Notes under the pieces: generated by a model
Databases searched by the model: none
Told to the model about the DNA's origin: nothing
What the model saw: the letters and a program-made list of their open reading frames with translations, nothing else
Assembly (NCBI GenBank): GCA_035368605.1
Contig: DAOSLF010000002.1
Coordinates: forward strand, 12,023 to 76,022
Reading direction: 5' to 3'
DNA: 64,000 nt
From: Candidatus Omnitrophota bacterium
GTDB taxonomy: Bacteria > Omnitrophota > Omnitrophia > Omnitrophales > Aquincolibacteriaceae
Made by a program: the position numbers and the translations under genes
Part shown: one piece after another, positions 9,673-16,825 of the stretch
Numbering within the stretch: the stretch's first letter is position 1
How the letters are laid out: the number at the start of each line of letters is the position of its first letter

Positions 9673-9734
9673 GCCCGGAATTAAAATCGGGGTCACACCC
9701 CGAATTTATTCACCGCCGAAATCTCCGCAAAGCA

Positions 9735-9786: not shown

Positions 9787-10251
9787 CTAGAACTCGCGCG
9801 AGCCTCTCGATCCCTTGCGGTGTCCACCGCCTCTTCCGAAACGTTTTTTGCGGAAACTTCCCGCGGCTCCGTGAGAACGGCCGAACGACCTTTCGGGACT
9901 TTCGTGATGCCTGCCGAATCCCCCGTCCTGGTCGTCGCGACGACCGGTATGGAATCCTCCGCCGCCATGACGGGGCTTGAAACCGCCACCCCCGCCGCGG
10001 AACGGACGGCCGAAGGGCTTGCGGTGCTCCCGAAAGCCACGGGAATCTTGTTTGCCTTCCGCGCGGTTCCCAGCGTTCTCTGACCTTTCGATCAGGAAAT
10101 TGAGTTTTTTCTCGAGAATCTCGAGCCGTTCGTTGATCTTCTCGAGGACCTCGGTGATGTCGACCTCTTCCATTTCATCTTCCCGGTCTTCTTCCCGTTC
10201 CCCGAATTCTTCTTCCTGGTTCCCGCCAGCCTGTTCGTTTCCCTTGTTCAT
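9787..10251 (-). CDS. Hypothetical RG/GGF-rich protein: acidic N-terminal coiled-coil segment followed by a low-complexity RGG-type tail
   Basis: 154-aa ORF with a good SD (AAGGGAG 6 nt upstream of the ATG). Co-oriented downstream of the rluA-family gene and ending at the shared terminator. Its composition could partly reflect high GC, so confidence is modest. Confidence 0.4.
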   Translation of the reverse strand: MNKGNEQAGGNQEEEFGEREEDREDEMEEVDITEVLEKINERLEILEKKLNFLIERSENAGNRAEGKQDSRGFREHRKPFGRPFRGGGGGFKPRHGGGGFHTGRRDDQDGGFGRHHESPERSFGRSHGAAGSFRKKRFGRGGGHRKGSRGSREF

Positions 10252-10364: not shown

Positions 10365-11276
10365 TTAAGTCACTATTTTCTCGAACGCGGCCGGGACCGG
10401 GAGATCGATCTCCGTCTCCTTGCCCGTCACGGGATGCACGAAGGCGAGATAGTGCGAATGGAGCGCGATCCGCTTCGCGGGATCGGTCCTGGCGCCGTAC
10501 TGGCTGTCACCGGCAATCGGATGTCCCATGTCGGAGAGCTGGACGCGAATCTGGTGCTTCCGCCCCGTACCAAGCTCCACCTCGAGGAGCGAGTGCCGGG
10601 GGCTTGAGCGCATCACGCGATAATGCGTCACGGAAAGCTTCGCGCCCTCGGTCGCGGGCGTGCTGTAGACCTTCAGGAACTTGTTCTCCCGCAGATAGCT
10701 TTTGAGAGTCCCCTCCGGCTTTTCTGGAACGCCTTCCACAACGGCATAATAGCGTTTTGTCACGTCCGGCCAGTTCGCCCGCAGGATTTCCTTCATCCCG
10801 GCCGTTTTGGCGAACATCAAAAGGCCCGAGACCTCCTTATCCAGGCGGTGCACGAGAAAGATTTGCTTTCCGCGCTTTACCGGAGCGGTCCCCGGACGCG
10901 GACGGGCAACCTCTACACCCTCCCGGAGGACATGCTCATTCGCGGCAAAAAAAGCCGTGCGGGTCGATACCTTGTCGGTCGAGATCGTCAGAAGTCCCGC
11001 CGGTTTTTCGATCACGAGAATCCGGTCGTCCTCGTAAACAATCCGGATACCGTACTTAAGGGACCCTGCGGCCGCGGCTTCTTTCACGGAAAGAACGCGT
11101 ACCGTATCGCCGGCTTTCAGGGGACGATCGAACCTTTTTTCGACACATCCGTTCACGAGCACCGAACCAAACTTCAGATATTGTCGCACCTTCGTGCGCT
11201 TCGTGTCCGCAAGAAGGCGGAACAGCGTTTCAAGGAGCGGCCCTTCTTTTGCGGGTGTGATCGAAAAATCTCTCAT
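10365..11276 (-). CDS. RluA-family 23S rRNA pseudouridine synthase (RluC/RluD-like, N-terminal S4 domain)
   Basis: S4 domain (TKVRQYLKFGSVLVNGCVEKRFDRPLKAGDTV) and catalytic HRLDKEVSGLLMFAKT motif. Start chosen at the internal ATG (MRDFSITPAKEG), which overlaps the upstream gene's stop by 4 nt (ATGA). The 487-aa track ORF extends upstream in frame over the neighbouring gene. Confidence 0.85.
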   Translation of the reverse strand: MRDFSITPAKEGPLLETLFRLLADTKRTKVRQYLKFGSVLVNGCVEKRFDRPLKAGDTVRVLSVKEAAAAGSLKYGIRIVYEDDRILVIEKPAGLLTISTDKVSTRTAFFAANEHVLREGVEVARPRPGTAPVKRGKQIFLVHRLDKEVSGLLMFAKTAGMKEILRANWPDVTKRYYAVVEGVPEKPEGTLKSYLRENKFLKVYSTPATEGAKLSVTHYRVMRSSPRHSLLEVELGTGRKHQIRVQLSDMGHPIAGDSQYGARTDPAKRIALHSHYLAFVHPVTGKETEIDLPVPAAFEKIVT

Positions 11277-11914
11277 GCTCTTTTTGCCGGCGGATCCCCC
11301 GCCCCAAAGAGTTTTTTCACGAAACGCCAGAGCCAGCGGATGAGGAGAAAAGCGAGGAAAAGAATGCCCAGGACAGTCAGCGTCGCGAGCACCGGGTGTT
11401 TGATAAAGAACCAGAACATCCCGATCACAAGGCCCTGTTCGACCGTACTGACCGCGATATTGGAGAAAGGTTCGGGCGAGGCGTTGATCGCGAGGCGACC
11501 CGCCGCTTTGGCCGTGTGCATGTTGAGCGTCATCGTCCCGGCCAACATCGCGTACGCGGTCTGGACGACAAGACCGTGTTCGGTTCCCGCGAGATAGCCG
11601 ATCCCGATCCCGCCGAGAGGCCGAATGACCGTGTGAACCGAATCCCAAACCGAATCCACATACGGGACCTTGTCTGCGATGAACTCGATCGCGAAAACGA
11701 TGAACGCCAGACTGAAGATGAGGGGGTTCGCGAAAACCGCGAGCTGGCCCGGAAGACCGATCCATCCGAAGAACCCGCAGAGGCCAAGCAGTCCGACCGC
11801 GAGGTACACGCTGATCCCCGCCGCCCACGCCCCGAGAATCACGACGAGGATCTCCCTGGGGGTATGCGCCACAATCCTGGTGATGTTTTCAATCGCGGCG
11901 GTCACGGCATCCAT
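11273..11914 (-). CDS. Polytopic inner-membrane protein, DUF4126-like
   Basis: 213-aa ORF with 5-6 predicted TM helices. Family assignment is from recall only. Confidence 0.5.
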   Translation of the reverse strand: MDAVTAAIENITRIVAHTPREILVVILGAWAAGISVYLAVGLLGLCGFFGWIGLPGQLAVFANPLIFSLAFIVFAIEFIADKVPYVDSVWDSVHTVIRPLGGIGIGYLAGTEHGLVVQTAYAMLAGTMTLNMHTAKAAGRLAINASPEPFSNIAVSTVEQGLVIGMFWFFIKHPVLATLTVLGILFLAFLLIRWLWRFVKKLFGAGDPPAKRA

Positions 11915-12210
11915 CAGTAGTTGAAAAGATCGCGGTGGGCAAACCGCTGGTCTTCCGGAACCGCGTTATGGAGGGCGTTCAGGATTTTGGTCTTCACGTT
12001 CGGCGTGAGGTACCGTCCCTTGCGGCCTTTCTGGACCATCTTGTGGGTCAGCTGTTCTTTCGAGGCCGAGACGAGATCGTGGTTGGAGAGTCCAAGCCGC
12101 GTCATGAGGGCATCGAGCGGTTGCGTTCCGTGTTCTTCCGCCACACATCCTCCCTTTCCCGTCTTAACTCCCGGTATTAGTTGGTGCAGGTTATCCGGCT
12201 TTAAGCTCAC
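11914..12210 (-). CDS. Small hypothetical protein with a helix-extended-helix (Rho_N/SAP-like) motif, directly downstream of rho
   Basis: 98 aa. The segment PLDALMTRLGLSNHDLVSASKEQLTHKMVQ resembles the HeH pattern of the Rho N-terminal helical bundle. Its start overlaps the rho stop region (12191-12210). Confidence 0.4.
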   Translation of the reverse strand: MSLKPDNLHQLIPGVKTGKGGCVAEEHGTQPLDALMTRLGLSNHDLVSASKEQLTHKMVQKGRKGRYLTPNVKTKILNALHNAVPEDQRFAHRDLFNY

Positions 12211-13258
12211 GACTCACGGCCGCGAGAAAATCCCTGTTGGTCGGGTATTTCCTGAGCTGCGTCGTGAGCGCCTGGATCGACTCTATCGGCTTCAGCCCCG
12301 CCAGGGCGCCGCGCATTCTTCGCACCGGTTCGAGTTCCTCGGGGGCCAGAAGCAATTCTTCTTTCCTTGTGCCGCTCCTGGAGATATCGACCGCCGGAAA
12401 GATTCGCTGATTCGATATCTCGCGCGACAGGTAGATCTCCATATTCCCGGTCCCTTTGAACTCTTCGAAAATATACTGATCCATCCGGCTCCCTGTGTCC
12501 ACCAGGATCGTCGCAAGAATCGTGAGCGAACCGCCGTGCTCGATCTTGCGAGCAGACCCGAAGATGCGCCGCGGCACCTCAAGCGCCCGCGCGTCCACGC
12601 CGCCCGAAAGCGTACGCCCGCTCGACATCCGCTCCGCGTTATGCACGCGCGCAAGGCGCGTCAGCGAATCGACCAGCACCATCACATTCGCGCCGTCCAG
12701 AACCTCGCGGTAGACCTGTTTCATCAGCCCGTCTGCCGTCGCGATGTGGTGATCGCAGGATTCGTCCGAAGACGACCAGCGGACCTCCGCCGGAGCGCTC
12801 CGCCTGAAATCCGTGACCTCCTCCGGCCGTTCATCGATCAAGAGGCAGTAGAGCTTCATTTCCGGATGGCTTTTCGCGACGGACCGGCAGACATGTTTTA
12901 AAAAAGTTGTCTTGCCGGTACCGGGGGGCGCGACGATGAGCCCGCGCTGTCCCATCCCGATCGGCGACACGAGGTCCATGACCCGCATCGTCATTTCCGG
13001 GAGGCCGTCCTCGAGACGGAGCCGCGGGGACGGATCGATCGCGACCGAGGCCCTGAATTTCCGGGAGATCTCGTCATCCTGAGAACTGGCCGGCTGCTGC
13101 CGCGCGTAGCCGTTCCGGGCATAGCCGTTCGGCGCGGGATGACGGTAACCCCCGTGTCCCGGCGCATACGGCTTCCGGGGACGCTGCGGCCGGCCGCGCC
13201 GCGGGCGTTCTCCCCCGCTTCCCTTCCCGTGCCGGTTTCCCGGATCAAAAGGTCTCAT
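12191..13258 (-). CDS. rho: Transcription termination factor Rho, atypical: the ATPase/C-terminal domain is complete, but the N-terminal helical bundle and OB-fold (CSD) are replaced by a ~62-aa RG/YG-rich low-complexity segment.
   Basis: Walker A RGLIVAPPGTGKT. Rho-specific motifs VDSLTRLARVHN, GGSLTILATILVDTGSRMDQYIFEEFKGTGNMEIYLSR and ISNQRIFPAVDISRSGTRKEELL. The region PSPRLRLEDG...MRVMDLVSPIG aligns to E. coli Rho residues ~140-170. ATG at 13256-13258 overlaps the ABC-F stop (ATGA). Confidence 0.9.
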   Translation of the reverse strand: MRPFDPGNRHGKGSGGERPRRGRPQRPRKPYAPGHGGYRHPAPNGYARNGYARQQPASSQDDEISRKFRASVAIDPSPRLRLEDGLPEMTMRVMDLVSPIGMGQRGLIVAPPGTGKTTFLKHVCRSVAKSHPEMKLYCLLIDERPEEVTDFRRSAPAEVRWSSSDESCDHHIATADGLMKQVYREVLDGANVMVLVDSLTRLARVHNAERMSSGRTLSGGVDARALEVPRRIFGSARKIEHGGSLTILATILVDTGSRMDQYIFEEFKGTGNMEIYLSREISNQRIFPAVDISRSGTRKEELLLAPEELEPVRRMRGALAGLKPIESIQALTTQLRKYPTNRDFLAAVSRELKAG

Positions 13259-15072
13259 TTTTGCAGCTTATCCATTTTGGTTTGCAGGGAGTACCATTCG
13301 TCCTCGGCTTTTTCGATACTGATCTGGATTTCTTTCAGCTTCAGATTGCGCTCCTTTGAAAAGTGCATGGGATTATCCGCCATCTCTTTCAGGATTTTGT
13401 CGCGCTCCTCGGTGAAATGTTTCATCCGGCCTTCCGCCTTGGCCAGGGCCTTCCTGAGTTTCGCGATCTCGGCGCCCGGCTTCGGCGTTTTCGCCGCAGG
13501 ACCGGCGGGGGCCGCTCTCGCATCACGGACCGGACCTTTCTTTTTCGGCTCCGGCATCTCCCCCGCAACCGTTTCTTCCCGTTCCCCCCGCGCTACCTGT
13601 TCGCGGAAGTAAACATAATCTTCATAGCTCCCCGGATACCTCAGGACCCGCCCGCGTTTTACTTCAAGGATCTTGTCCGCGACCAGGTTCACGAAGGTCC
13701 TGTCGTGGCTGATGAACACGACCGTACCGTTAAAACGTTTCAGGGCCTGGCCGAGCGATTCCACGGTCTCGAAGTCCAGATGGTTCGTCGGTTCGTCGAG
13801 GAGCAGGACGTGGCTTTTTGAGAGGAGGATTCCCGCCAGCACAAGCCTCGCCCGTTCGCCTCCGCTCAGGACCTTCACCTTCTTTTTGACGTCATCTCCC
13901 TTGAAGAGGAAACATCCCGCCATATTGAGGACATCCTGGTTCGTAACGCCGGGATGGCTCTCCCGCACAAGATGCGTATAAATATCATCCTCCGGATCGA
14001 GGGCCGAGAACACGTGCTGGGCATAAAAAGCCGTCTTCAGCCCCGTTCCCCAGCGGAATGTCCCCGCTTTGGGGGCGAGATCACCCGCCATGGTCCTCAG
14101 CAGGGTCGTTTTCCCCTCGCCGTTGTCACCGAGCACGGCGACGCGATCCCCGCGCTCGATCTCGAATTCGATCCCGCGCGCGACATCCTTTTCCGGATAT
14201 CCCACAGTGAGATCTTCGCACGCGAACGCGATCCCCGCTTTCGCTTCGATAGGCGGGATCGGAATCCTGACGTTCGACATCGGATGGCCGATCTCTATCG
14301 TTTTCAGTTTCGCGAGCTGCTTCATTTTCGACTGGGCGCGTGAAGCCGTCGACGCCTTGGCGCGGAACCGGTCGATAAAGGCCTGAAGCTGCTCGCGTTT
14401 TTTTTCAACGCCCCGGTTGTGGGCCTCGGTCTGGGCGGTTCGGACTTCCTTAAACTCGAAATATTCCTCGATGTCCCCCGGATACAACGTCAATTCGCCA
14501 CCTTCAACCTCCAGCGTGTGATCGCAGGTCCGTTTCAGAAACTCGCGGTCGTGGGAAACGACCAGGCATCCGCCTCGGAAATCGATCAGGAAATTCTCGA
14601 GCAGGATCAGCGTGTTGAGGTCCAGGTAATTGCTCGGCTCGTCAAGGATCAGAAAATTGGGATCTCCAAGAAGCATCGCGGCCAGCTTCACGCGCGTCTG
14701 ATAACCGCCCGGAAGACTGCGGACCGTCGCCTCCAGCATGTCATTCGGAATCCTGAAACGGGCGGCCATCTGGCCGCATTCCCAGTGTTCGCTTTCCGTC
14801 GCGCGCATCAGGTAGTCGAGAACGCTTTCACCATCGCGGAAAACATCGTGCTGTTCCAGATAGCTGAGGCGTAACGCCGCGTTCTTCGAGACCGTCCCGC
14901 CGTCAGCGGTCTCGTGGCCCGTGATGATCCGGCAAAGCGTGGACTTCCCGGCGCCATTCCGGCCGATCACGCCGATTTTCTGGTCGTCCTCAAAAGCGGC
15001 CGTGGCGTTCTCAAGGATGACCGAAGCGCCGTAGGCCTTGCAAATGCCGTTGATCTGTAAAAGGACCGTCAT
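13255..15072 (-). CDS. ABC-F family ATPase (two ABC domains plus a C-terminal coiled-coil; Uup/EttA-like ribosome-associated factor)
   Basis: 605 aa. Two Walker A motifs (GRNGAGKST, GDNGEGKTT), two LSGGE signatures, and a C-terminal charged coiled-coil tail. Confidence 0.9.
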   Translation of the reverse strand: MTVLLQINGICKAYGASVILENATAAFEDDQKIGVIGRNGAGKSTLCRIITGHETADGGTVSKNAALRLSYLEQHDVFRDGESVLDYLMRATESEHWECGQMAARFRIPNDMLEATVRSLPGGYQTRVKLAAMLLGDPNFLILDEPSNYLDLNTLILLENFLIDFRGGCLVVSHDREFLKRTCDHTLEVEGGELTLYPGDIEEYFEFKEVRTAQTEAHNRGVEKKREQLQAFIDRFRAKASTASRAQSKMKQLAKLKTIEIGHPMSNVRIPIPPIEAKAGIAFACEDLTVGYPEKDVARGIEFEIERGDRVAVLGDNGEGKTTLLRTMAGDLAPKAGTFRWGTGLKTAFYAQHVFSALDPEDDIYTHLVRESHPGVTNQDVLNMAGCFLFKGDDVKKKVKVLSGGERARLVLAGILLSKSHVLLLDEPTNHLDFETVESLGQALKRFNGTVVFISHDRTFVNLVADKILEVKRGRVLRYPGSYEDYVYFREQVARGEREETVAGEMPEPKKKGPVRDARAAPAGPAAKTPKPGAEIAKLRKALAKAEGRMKHFTEERDKILKEMADNPMHFSKERNLKLKEIQISIEKAEDEWYSLQTKMDKLQK

Positions 15073-15388: not shown

Positions 15389-16825
15389 TCAATACTTGTA
15401 ATGCTCGGGCTTGTAAGGACCCTCGGAAGGCACGCCGAGGTAATCGGCCTGCTTCGGGGTAAGCCTGGTGAGCCTGGCGCCGAGTTTCTCGAGATGGAGC
15501 CGGGCGACTTCTTCGTCGAGTTTCTTGTCGAGCCGGTAAACACCCGGTTTCCTGGGGTTTAGCGCGAGATCAATCTGCGCGAGCGTCTGGTTCGTGAAGG
15601 AATTCGACATCACGAAACTGGGATGCCCCGTCGCGCAGCCGAGGTTCACGAGGCGCCCTTCCGCGAGAAGGATAATCGAGTGCCCGTCGGGAAACACGTA
15701 TTTGTCAACCTGCGGCTTGATGTTGATCTTCTTGATACCGGGCCATTTTTCGAGCTTCGCGACCTGAATCTCGTTGTCGAAATGCCCGATATTACAGACA
15801 ATCGCCTCATCCTTCATTTTGGACATGTGCACGGCGGTGATGACGTCGATATTACCGGTCGTCGTCACGTAGATATCGCCGATATCGAGCACATCCTCGA
15901 GACGCGCGACCTGGTAGCCGGCCATGGACGCCTGAAGGGCGCAGATCGGGTCGATCTCGGTCACGATCACGCGAGCCTTCAATTCCGCGAGGGATTGAGC
16001 GCTGCCTTTGCCCACGTCCCCATAGCCGAGAACAACGGCGACCTTGCCCGCGATCATCACATCGGTCGCGCGTTTGATGCCGTCCACGAGCGATTCGCGG
16101 CAGCCGTACAGGTTGTCAAATTTCGATTTCGTGACGGAATCGTTCACGTTGATCGCGGGAACGAGGAGCCTTCCCTCTTCCTGCATCTTGTAGAGCCGGT
16201 GAACGCCGGTCGTGGTCTCCTCCGAAACGCCTTCCCATTCCGCGACAACGTCGCGCCATTTCTTCGGGGTCTCCTCGAGGCATTGTTTCAGGACCCTGAA
16301 AAGCTCGATCTCATCCTGCGTCTCGACCTTCTTGTCGAGAAGTCTGGGGTTCTTTTCCGCGTCGTATCCGAGATGGACCATAAGCGTCGCGTCCCCGCCG
16401 TCATCGACGATCAGGTTCGGGCCCTTGCCGCCCGGGAAGGTCAGGGCCTGCAACGTACACCACCAGTATTCTTCGAGGGTCTCCCCTTTCCACGCAAACA
16501 CCGGAATCCCGCGCTTCGCGATCGCGGCCGCCGCGTGGTCCTGCGTCGAAAAGATATTGCACGAGCACCACCGGACATCCGCGCCAAGCTCGACGAGTGT
16601 CTCGATCAGCACCGCGGTCTGGATCGTCATGTGGAGGCTCCCCATGATCCGTTTGCCCTTCAGCGGTTTTTTCGGTCCGTATTTTCTGCGGGTGGCCATG
16701 AGGCCGGGCATTTCCTTCTCGGCCATTTCGATCTCTTTACGGCCCCAATCCGCCAGGGAAAGGTCCGCGACCTTGAAGTCCTGGATCTTGTTCTGGGCAG
16801 GCTGTTTCTTTGACTCGGTAGACAT
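15389..16825 (-). CDS. ahcY: Adenosylhomocysteinase (S-adenosyl-L-homocysteine hydrolase)
   Basis: 478 aa with an NAD-binding [15 protein letters not shown] motif and overall AhcY similarity. Confidence 0.95.

Follow-up and report, generated by a model that had tools for sequence, protein, structure and literature searches.

The window analyzed here, a stretch of 64,000 nucleotides from a Candidatus Omnitrophota bacterium (assembly GCA_035368605.1, contig DAOSLF010000002.1, positions 12,023 to 76,022 of the forward strand), carries on its minus strand a short gene for the transcription termination factor Rho. The gene (12191..13258, from the list of open reading frames [ORFs] and the sequence) starts with ATG and encodes 355 amino acids (aa) plus a stop codon. 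Its product, called short Rho below, lacks two features that define canonical Rho, namely, the OB-fold primary binding site (PBS) for RNA and the N-terminal helix bundle, and the motor domain is preceded by a basic disordered tail. The same layout is found in a large family of mostly Omnitrophota proteins. On balance, we lean toward the view that short Rho is an Omnitrophota-type Rho, a ring ATPase and RNA translocase in which the basic tail stands in place of a lost N-terminal domain (NTD). All coordinates are window positions, and all features lie on the minus strand unless indicated otherwise.

Domain architecture of short Rho

Short Rho scored 369 bits against the Rho model NF006886 (cutoff of 315), and its top matches in the PDB were Rho chains (E of about 1e-85). 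An identity as a FliI, type III secretion system (T3SS), or F1-type ATPase was rejected (≤74 bits versus 369 for Rho, and PDB E values of ~1e-14 versus 1e-85). An initial annotation, made from the sequence alone, had already recognized the Rho ATPase motifs, and both FEEFKGTGNME (aa 264 to 274) and SGTRKEE (aa 295 to 301) are in place, as is the tail segment that it quoted, GGERPRRGRPQRPRKPYAPGHGGYRHPAPNGYARNGYAR (aa 15 to 53). It had also set the beginning of the alignment at E. coli residue ~125, which is essentially right, if a few residues early. The match to NF006886 spans query residues 66 to 347 and model positions 131 to 412 of 413, so that query residue 66 corresponds to model position 131. 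With the full E. coli Rho as the tblastn query, residues 133 to 418 aligned to 13057-12209 with 48.6% identity, while in a phmmer comparison with PDB chains, the similarity began at E. coli residue 139 (query residue 74-75 onward). Since only the C-terminal part of the model was matched, the score against TIGR00767 (354.9 bits) fell below its cutoff of 509.45, the N-terminal third of the model remaining unmatched.

Several lines of evidence converge on the absence of the NTD. Pfam detected PF00006 alone (residues 91 to 295, E = 1e-19), with no match to PF07497 (Rho_RNA_bind) or PF07498 (Rho_N) in short Rho at E ≤ 1, as the initial annotation had expected. When residues 1 to 130 of E. coli Rho served as a tblastn query on the window in all six frames, the lowest E value was 2.6, and a hidden or frameshifted NTD was rejected on these two results. 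A custom OB-fold hidden Markov model (HMM) matched 0 of 120 family members at E ≤ 10; outside the family, among the 150 nearest Rho representatives at the 50% identity level, it detected the domain in 133. The AlphaFold2 model, built from an 80-sequence alignment, had a mean predicted local distance difference test score (pLDDT) of 86.9. Residues 1 to 55 had a pLDDT of <50 and no secondary structure, and a helix at residues 56 to 70 was followed by a confident core, with no folded domain ahead of residue 56. Helix bundle and OB fold are therefore both missing, as had been claimed, by Pfam, six-frame tblastn, AlphaFold2, and the custom OB HMM, and neither turned up in short Rho, in the flanks, or elsewhere in the six frames of the window. 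Nor could a coding part have been missed upstream, as the in-frame upstream sequence is the conserved C terminus of an ABC-F protein.

The RecA-type motor domain of Rho, referred to as the C-terminal domain (CTD), occupies aa 66 to 347 (12218..13063). Leading into it is a connector helix in the AlphaFold2 model (aa 56 to 70; 13049..13093) that aligns to the NTD-CTD linker of E. coli (residues ~128 to 140). We scored conservation across 80 family sequences; adding 68 to a residue number of short Rho gives the E. coli number. Functional motifs were located by alignment. In the Walker A motif or P-loop APPGTGKTT (aa 110 to 118; 12905..12931), K116 equals E. coli K184, and P111, P112, G113, K116, T117, and T118 are invariant. 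The motif DERPEE (12818..12835) holds the catalytic Glu143 and Arg144 (E211 and R212 in E. coli), both invariant, and the Walker B motif VLVDSLTR (12656..12679) holds D197 and R201 (D265 and R269), which are invariant together with S198, L199, and T200. The arginine finger R298 (R366) belongs to SGTRKEE (12356..12376) and is invariant, as are T297 and R285 (R353). The secondary RNA-binding site in the channel is also kept. Its Q-loop, RMSSGRTLSGGVD (12593..12631), has the conserved core SGRTLSGGVD, with G214, R215, T216, S218, G219, G220, and D222 invariant; in its R-loop, TGSRMD (12479..12496), T255, G256, and S257 are invariant and R258 is conserved at ≥90%. The two lysines of E. coli at these loops, K283 and K326, are conservatively replaced by Arg (R215 and R258, respectively).

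One difference from E. coli concerns the P-loop, where all 80 members have Gly (Gly113, codon at 12923-12925) in place of K181 (PPGxGKT versus PPKAGKT). We take K181 to be a residue of the bicyclomycin pocket, and both drug sensitivity and nucleotide handling may differ in the family. In a Foldseek comparison, the AlphaFold2 core superposed on Rho chains over 283 to 286 columns with a root mean square deviation of 1.4 to 1.6 Å. Judged by its sequence, the C-terminal motor domain is fully intact, and the conservation of the catalytic and channel residues in 80 sequences argues against a decaying, pseudogene-like paralog.

The N-terminal tail (aa 1 to 62; 13073..13258) was delimited by composition and by the pLDDT of <50 for aa 1 to 55. 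It contains 11 Arg, 2 Lys, 3 His, 11 Gly, 10 Pro, and 4 Tyr residues and has a net charge of +9, with a single RG dipeptide and no RGG triplet. From the earlier description of an RG-rich, RGG-type tail, the replacement of the NTD by a basic low-complexity segment stands, while the RGG label does not. The tail is Arg/Gly/Pro/Tyr-rich in this protein and Arg/His/Pro/Ser-rich across the family. A tandem NGYAR-NGYAR repeat (aa 44 to 53; 13100..13129) was verified in the sequence. Family tails measure 25 to 65 residues (median of about 40), and their pooled composition is 19% R, 13% P, 10% H, 10% S, 7% G, 7% N, 2% K, and 7% D+E. Net charge is positive in 99/99 tails of ≥20 aa, with a median of +6. 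The protein begins with MRPFD (13244..13258), an instance of a start motif that family comparison resolved as M-[RK]-x-[FY]-[DNS]; 57 of the 97 tails of ≥25 aa match a strict form of the pattern. Since the motif is retained at loci where the upstream gene is not ABC-F (L013 to L019), it reflects a constraint on the protein and is not a by-product of gene overlap.

The Omnitrophota family and OB-less relatives

We searched a database of 5.8 billion protein clusters and retained the best 120. At least 120 clusters share the short architecture. The best 120 are all 261 to 380 aa long, and their Pfam matches are to P-loop ATPase families alone, always including PF00006, with neither Rho_N nor Rho_RNA_bind. 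Those with names are almost all called "transcription termination factor Rho" and come from Candidatus Omnitrophota/Omnitrophica. Scanning one genome for each GTDB species gave 20 loci, of which 17 were short-Rho loci, 63 to 84% identical and mostly from Omnitrophota-labeled metagenome-assembled genomes (MAGs). We inspected 19 short-Rho loci, i.e., these 17 plus the relative L001 and its sequence-identical duplicate entry, and in every one an in-frame stop lies 0 to 77 codons upstream of the conserved start. As the architecture is shared by at least 120 clusters and 17 independent loci, it is not an artifact of assembly or of start codon choice. The homolog survey suggested by the initial annotation has given the same architecture in these relatives. 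What had appeared there as a peculiar, unrecognized arrangement turns out to be the standard layout across a large monophyletic family, mostly from Omnitrophota, that public annotation already names Rho. Nor is the implied novelty complete, given that the main text of a survey by Moreira et al. (PMC11347177) has a class of single-domain "Rho-like" proteins and that OB-less forms exist in other lineages.

These other lineages came to light when 1.84 billion representatives were searched exhaustively with HMMER. At 50% identity, about two representatives stand for the entire Omnitrophota family. The other top matches are mostly long, OB-bearing Rho proteins, and seven further representatives have the layout of a basic tail plus CTD, among them P0140 (a Hydrogenedentes MAG), P0133 (a Sericytochromatia MAG), and P0129. 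Proteins in which a basic disordered tail is all that precedes the Rho motor include P0124, P0130, P0185, and P0273/P0274. The cluster formed by P0129, P0273, and P0274 (loci L023 to L024 and L026 to L033) lies on contigs of 4.4 to 4.9 Mb, in a non-housekeeping neighborhood (peptidase S9, RidA, NnrU).

We then built a neighbor-joining tree of the CTD with 40 bootstraps. The Omnitrophota family was monophyletic in 38/40 bootstraps, and P0121 plus P0133 were its exclusive OB-less sisters in 40/40. Because the OB-less P0130 and P0185 were placed among OB-bearing sequences, the OB fold was lost more than once, with the tree pointing to no fewer than two or three independent losses. For the family itself, loss of the NTD in an ancestor of the Omnitrophota lineage is part of the explanation toward which we lean, and we regard it as somewhat probable.

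The closest OB-bearing lineage belongs to another phylum, being represented by P0126 from Phycisphaerae (Planctomycetota). No Omnitrophota names appeared among the matches of a search with P0126, all of which were Phycisphaerae, although this is not proof of absence. P0126 and 120 homologs make up a large Phycisphaerae clade with Rho proteins of about 364 aa, whose OB-like N-terminal segment is too divergent for PF07497 and aligns in part to NF041509 and to the custom OB HMM. Contigs of the P0126 type and of the P0129 cluster come from different assemblies.

Some unusual forms were also encountered on short metagenomic contigs. P0211 (690 aa) has a partial Rho OB fold and ATPase fused to a glycosyltransferase of family 2 (GT2), and in P0123 (400 aa) the C-terminal half of Rho is duplicated; gene call or assembly artifacts probably account for both. 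At locus L022 (10001-10841), a Type-4-like rho, with an OB fold and without a helix bundle, was recovered in two tblastn segments, a split that suggests a frameshift or sequencing error.

Known Rho types and the gene neighborhood

Compared with canonical Rho (that of E. coli; Type 1 of Moreira; NF006886/TIGR00767), short Rho has the same RecA-type motor with Walker A and B motifs, catalytic Glu, arginine finger, and Q- and R-loops, at about 49% identity over about 285 residues and with the close superposition given above (1.4 to 1.6 Å). It differs in having no equivalent of E. coli residues 1 to 130 (PF07498 plus PF07497), with the basic disordered tail found instead. A conserved helicase core tethered nonspecifically to RNA by an Arg-rich disordered extension is known from the DEAD-box helicases Mss116p and CYT-19. 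Their tail would offer an analogy for the mode of action that we propose for short Rho, although fold and oligomeric state are unrelated (a monomeric superfamily 2 [SF2] protein versus a hexameric RecA-type ring) and their tail is C-terminal.

The nearest described categories, as set out in the main text of Moreira et al. 2024, fit only in part. There, a functional Rho consists of an RNA-binding domain plus an ATPase domain (PMC11347177). Type 4 (Group B of D'Heygere), like NF041509, resembles short Rho in comprising proteins of ~360 aa with no N-terminal helix bundle. Type 4 proteins, however, have Rho's RNA-binding domain together with its ATPase domain, without Rho_N (PMC11347177) and so retain the RNA-binding OB domain that Pfam and the custom OB HMM failed to find in short Rho, and we rejected a Type 4 assignment. 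Such short OB-bearing forms are often second copies in genomes of the PVC group and of actinobacteria (PMC11347177). Membership in NF041509 ("Rho, short form [paralog_Rho2]") was rejected as well, with 337 bits against a cutoff of 628 and only model positions 77 to 359 matched. From position 21, the N-terminal part of this model aligns with the OB-like segment of P0126, which indicates that the NF041509 family keeps the OB fold.

With Type 2 Rho (Mycobacterium tuberculosis with its N-terminal insertion domain [NID], Micrococcus luteus, Bacteroides with its intrinsically disordered region [IDR], and Clostridium with its prion-like domain), short Rho shares a basic or low-complexity disordered N-terminal region, and its 62-aa tail exceeds the length of >25 aa by which the main text of the survey recognizes such regions. 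In Type 2, however, a complete NTD is present alongside the disordered region, whereas here that region is the sole element before the motor, and the RNA-binding domain that accompanies it in the definition is absent. By definition, a protein with one detectable Rho domain falls among the "Rho-like" proteins, which that survey sets aside from the functional types and treats in its supplement alone (PMC11347177). This is, however, a heterogeneous bin, and its main text describes no phylum-wide OB-less family; the string "Omnitroph*" does not occur there. Searchable literature on Rho in Omnitrophica/Omnitrophota, or on Rho without an RNA-binding domain, yielded nothing relevant. Databases thus already annotate the short form as Rho, and no description of the class was found in the searchable literature.

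The rho gene belongs to a string of minus-strand genes in the order ahcY (15389-16825), ABC-F, rho, a small ORF, DUF4126 (11273-11914), an ORF related to a pseudouridine-synthase-like neighbor in L003/L004, and a 154-aa protein (9787-10251). The ABC-F family ATPase (605 aa; 13255..15072; Pfam ABC_tran twice plus ABC_tran_Xtn; NCBIfam ABC-F) is directly upstream, and its TGA overlaps the ATG of rho in an ATGA (13255..13258, read from the sequence). This 4-nucleotide overlap, also found in the gene calls of L001, suggests translational coupling. Downstream of rho, the small ORF (76 aa; 11914..12144) has a GTG start with a GGGAGG Shine-Dalgarno sequence and a strongly conserved core, HKMVQKGRKGRRLTP...KILNAL...F.HRDLFNY. 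It had no family match in Pfam or NCBIfam. We considered it as a split-off Rho_N or OB module and rejected this at the profile level (hhalign probabilities of 2% versus Rho_N and 0.9% versus OB). It adjoins the short rho in L001 to L012 and is 3 kb away in L015.

The order ahcY, ABC-F, rho, small ORF, DUF4126 is kept at ≥72% Rho identity (L001 to L012) and lost in L013 to L019. ABC-F was accordingly rejected as an obligatory family-wide partner, the synteny being confined to that subclade, and since the gene order is lost in divergent members, neither ABC-F nor the small ORF is a family-wide partner. The 154-aa, acidic/RGG-rich protein at the end of the string is acidic and coiled-coil-like over its N-terminal half and rich in Gly and Arg over its C-terminal half (FRGGGGGFKPRHGGGGFH...GRGGGHRKGSRGS). 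It has no family match and is a second basic low-complexity protein of the string. Beyond it, a perfect GC-rich hairpin, TCGGGGT...ACCCCGA (9687-9703, both strands), is followed by T-runs on both strands and is likely a bidirectional intrinsic terminator closing the string. GC content is uniform across the region (about 0.59). There were no Rfam matches in the region, and neither the promoter/terminator scan nor the GC profile gave anything bearing on short Rho.

Possible modes of action and significance

The reading that we favor, a ring-shaped translocase loaded by its tails, starts from observed properties: a conserved architecture, a tail that is disordered and charged, and catalytic and channel residues that are intact. 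From these we infer that the protein would form hexamers, bind RNA through the tail, and act in termination as the Rho of the cell. The CTD would assemble into the usual hexamer, with six cationic tails projecting from the face normally occupied by the PBS crown. These tails might act as a nonspecific capture collar: through their charge, and with no preference for sequence, they would hold RNA that is exposed and untranslated and feed it into the central channel. Once the RNA touches the Q- and R-loops, the ring would close and ATP-driven 5'→3' translocation would start, possibly with help from the KOW domain of NusG, and docking of the CTD face on the RNA exit site of RNA polymerase (RNAP) would lead to termination and transcript release. 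Loading would thus proceed through six basic tails and/or NusG instead of a pyrimidine-specific primary site.

Work on other Rho proteins is in line with such a scheme. Hexamer cohesion, ATPase activity, and translocation are CTD functions (PMC12360218), as are hexamer cohesion and productive engagement of RNAP (PMC9908020; PMC12360218). In the productive Thermus thermophilus complex, Rho uses its CTD face for docking at the RNA exit site, the PBS is without visible RNA, and bulky NTD insertions leave RNA release unimpaired (PMC9908020). NusG-KOW binds the CTD and favors ring closure even on C-less RNA (PMC7819879). As for disordered regions, the basic NID of M. tuberculosis Rho is decisive for recruitment to Rut sites (1759 versus 47 sites; PMC13650167), and the IDR of Bacteroides Rho drives condensates (PMC12360218). 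An Arg-to-His change in the E. coli PBS produces a pH-sensitive Rho (PMC11441560), an effect worth noting here because the family tails contain about 9 to 10% His.

Other observations weigh against the tail-loaded ring. Apart from its start motif and its charge, the tail shows little sequence conservation, and tails of 0 to 17 aa occur in some family members, though their starts may be miscalled. The OB-less P0129 cluster, in genomes of 4.4 to 4.9 Mb, may consist of extra paralogs. Occupancy of the PBS normally promotes ring closure. Moreover, deletion of the N terminus of E. coli Rho abolishes RNA binding (cited in the main text of PMC11347177). From these last two facts, a Rho without a PBS may be a poor terminator on its own.

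It is a more tentative proposition, credible but not one to count on, that Omnitrophota cells have no Rho other than the short protein and that it is a working terminator. What speaks for it is the size of the family, its conservation, the lack of a second rho in ~0.4 Mb of sampled sequence (the 64-kb window plus roughly 330 kb flanking 19 related loci), and the fact that its nearest relatives with an OB fold come from a different phylum. The same observations bear on the alternative that a canonical Rho is encoded elsewhere in the genome and that the short form is an auxiliary paralog, either joining mixed hexamers in which the PBS is provided in trans or having a specialized or regulatory role. 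Two rho genes are present in 116/2730 genomes, notably in the PVC group, with hetero-hexamers as a proposed assembly (PMC11347177), and paralogy is plausible for OB-less relatives such as the P0129 cluster in its genomes of 4.4 to 4.9 Mb. A decaying copy, however, would hardly give a large monophyletic family with 63 to 88% identity to short Rho and invariant catalytic residues. In addition to the lack of a second rho in the flanks, the closest OB-bearing lineage is Phycisphaerae and not Omnitrophota, and a small genome is seen in at least one carrier (P0002, on a 1.78-Mb contig). We consider an auxiliary paralog unlikely.

Rather improbable, in our judgment, is a repurposed motor, i.e., a hexameric RNA translocase that is no longer a terminator and serves in RNA remodeling or decay, R-loop removal, or ABC-F-linked ribosome or translation quality control. 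The overlap of the rho start with the ABC-F stop and the synteny from ahcY to DUF4126 in the close subclade would agree with it, as would the loss of the rut-recognizing PBS, which targets Rho to nascent untranslated transcripts. However, the ABC-F linkage is missing in L013 to L019, so that functions are not coupled across the family. The protein has gained no new domain, and its CTD, with the face that contacts RNAP and NusG, equals bona fide Rho in conservation; there is no evident alternative terminator factor.

A partner could also supply RNA recognition, be it NusG, a free cold-shock/OB protein, or the 76-aa ORF, leaving the tail a mainly docking or regulatory role. The conserved M-R/K-x-F-D/N start is what would be expected of a short linear interaction motif, the 76-aa ORF adjoins rho in 12 loci, and NusG closes the Rho ring independently of C-rich RNA (PMC7819879). 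Nevertheless, this small protein is unrelated to Rho_N or OB by hhalign, has no family match, and is not adjacent to rho in L013 to L019, and nucleic acid binding is the simpler explanation for tails that all carry a positive charge, which leaves partner-dependent loading with a low probability. Finally, although the source is probably a MAG and such genomes are prone to errors, a frameshift, misassembly, or wrong start codon hiding a normal NTD is so improbable as to be effectively refuted, given that the in-frame upstream sequence is conserved ABC-F, that NTD-like coding potential is absent in every frame of the window by tblastn, and that the layout is identical in 17 independent assemblies and at least 120 clusters, with in-frame stops 0 to 77 codons upstream of the conserved Met, which also settles the frameshift check proposed by the initial annotation.

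A Rho of this layout bears on how the factor is defined. Both a 2025 review and the 2024 survey (2730 genomes) count the N-terminal PBS as part of a functional Rho, and an OB-less form shared so widely questions the assumption that Rho requires an RNA recognition domain. Surveys that demand an RNA-binding domain would score such lineages as being without functional Rho. The "tethered tracking" model needs the NTD held on the Rut site, and in "stand-by" structures, Rho touches RNAP via the NTD face; a phylum-wide Rho made of a motor and a basic tail would be a natural deletion experiment for both. If short Rho is a terminator, rut recognition and NTD contacts would be inessential, and a disordered cationic tail (or NusG) would be enough for loading. 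The protein is small and can be produced recombinantly, which makes these questions testable although the organisms are uncultured. If it is also the sole working Rho, a whole phylum would terminate transcription without the primary, rut/YC-recognizing site, as a natural PBS-less system in which six disordered His/Arg-rich tails, possibly tunable by pH, and/or NusG load the ring, and both tethered tracking and NTD-mediated contacts with RNAP would be dispensable for Rho-type termination.

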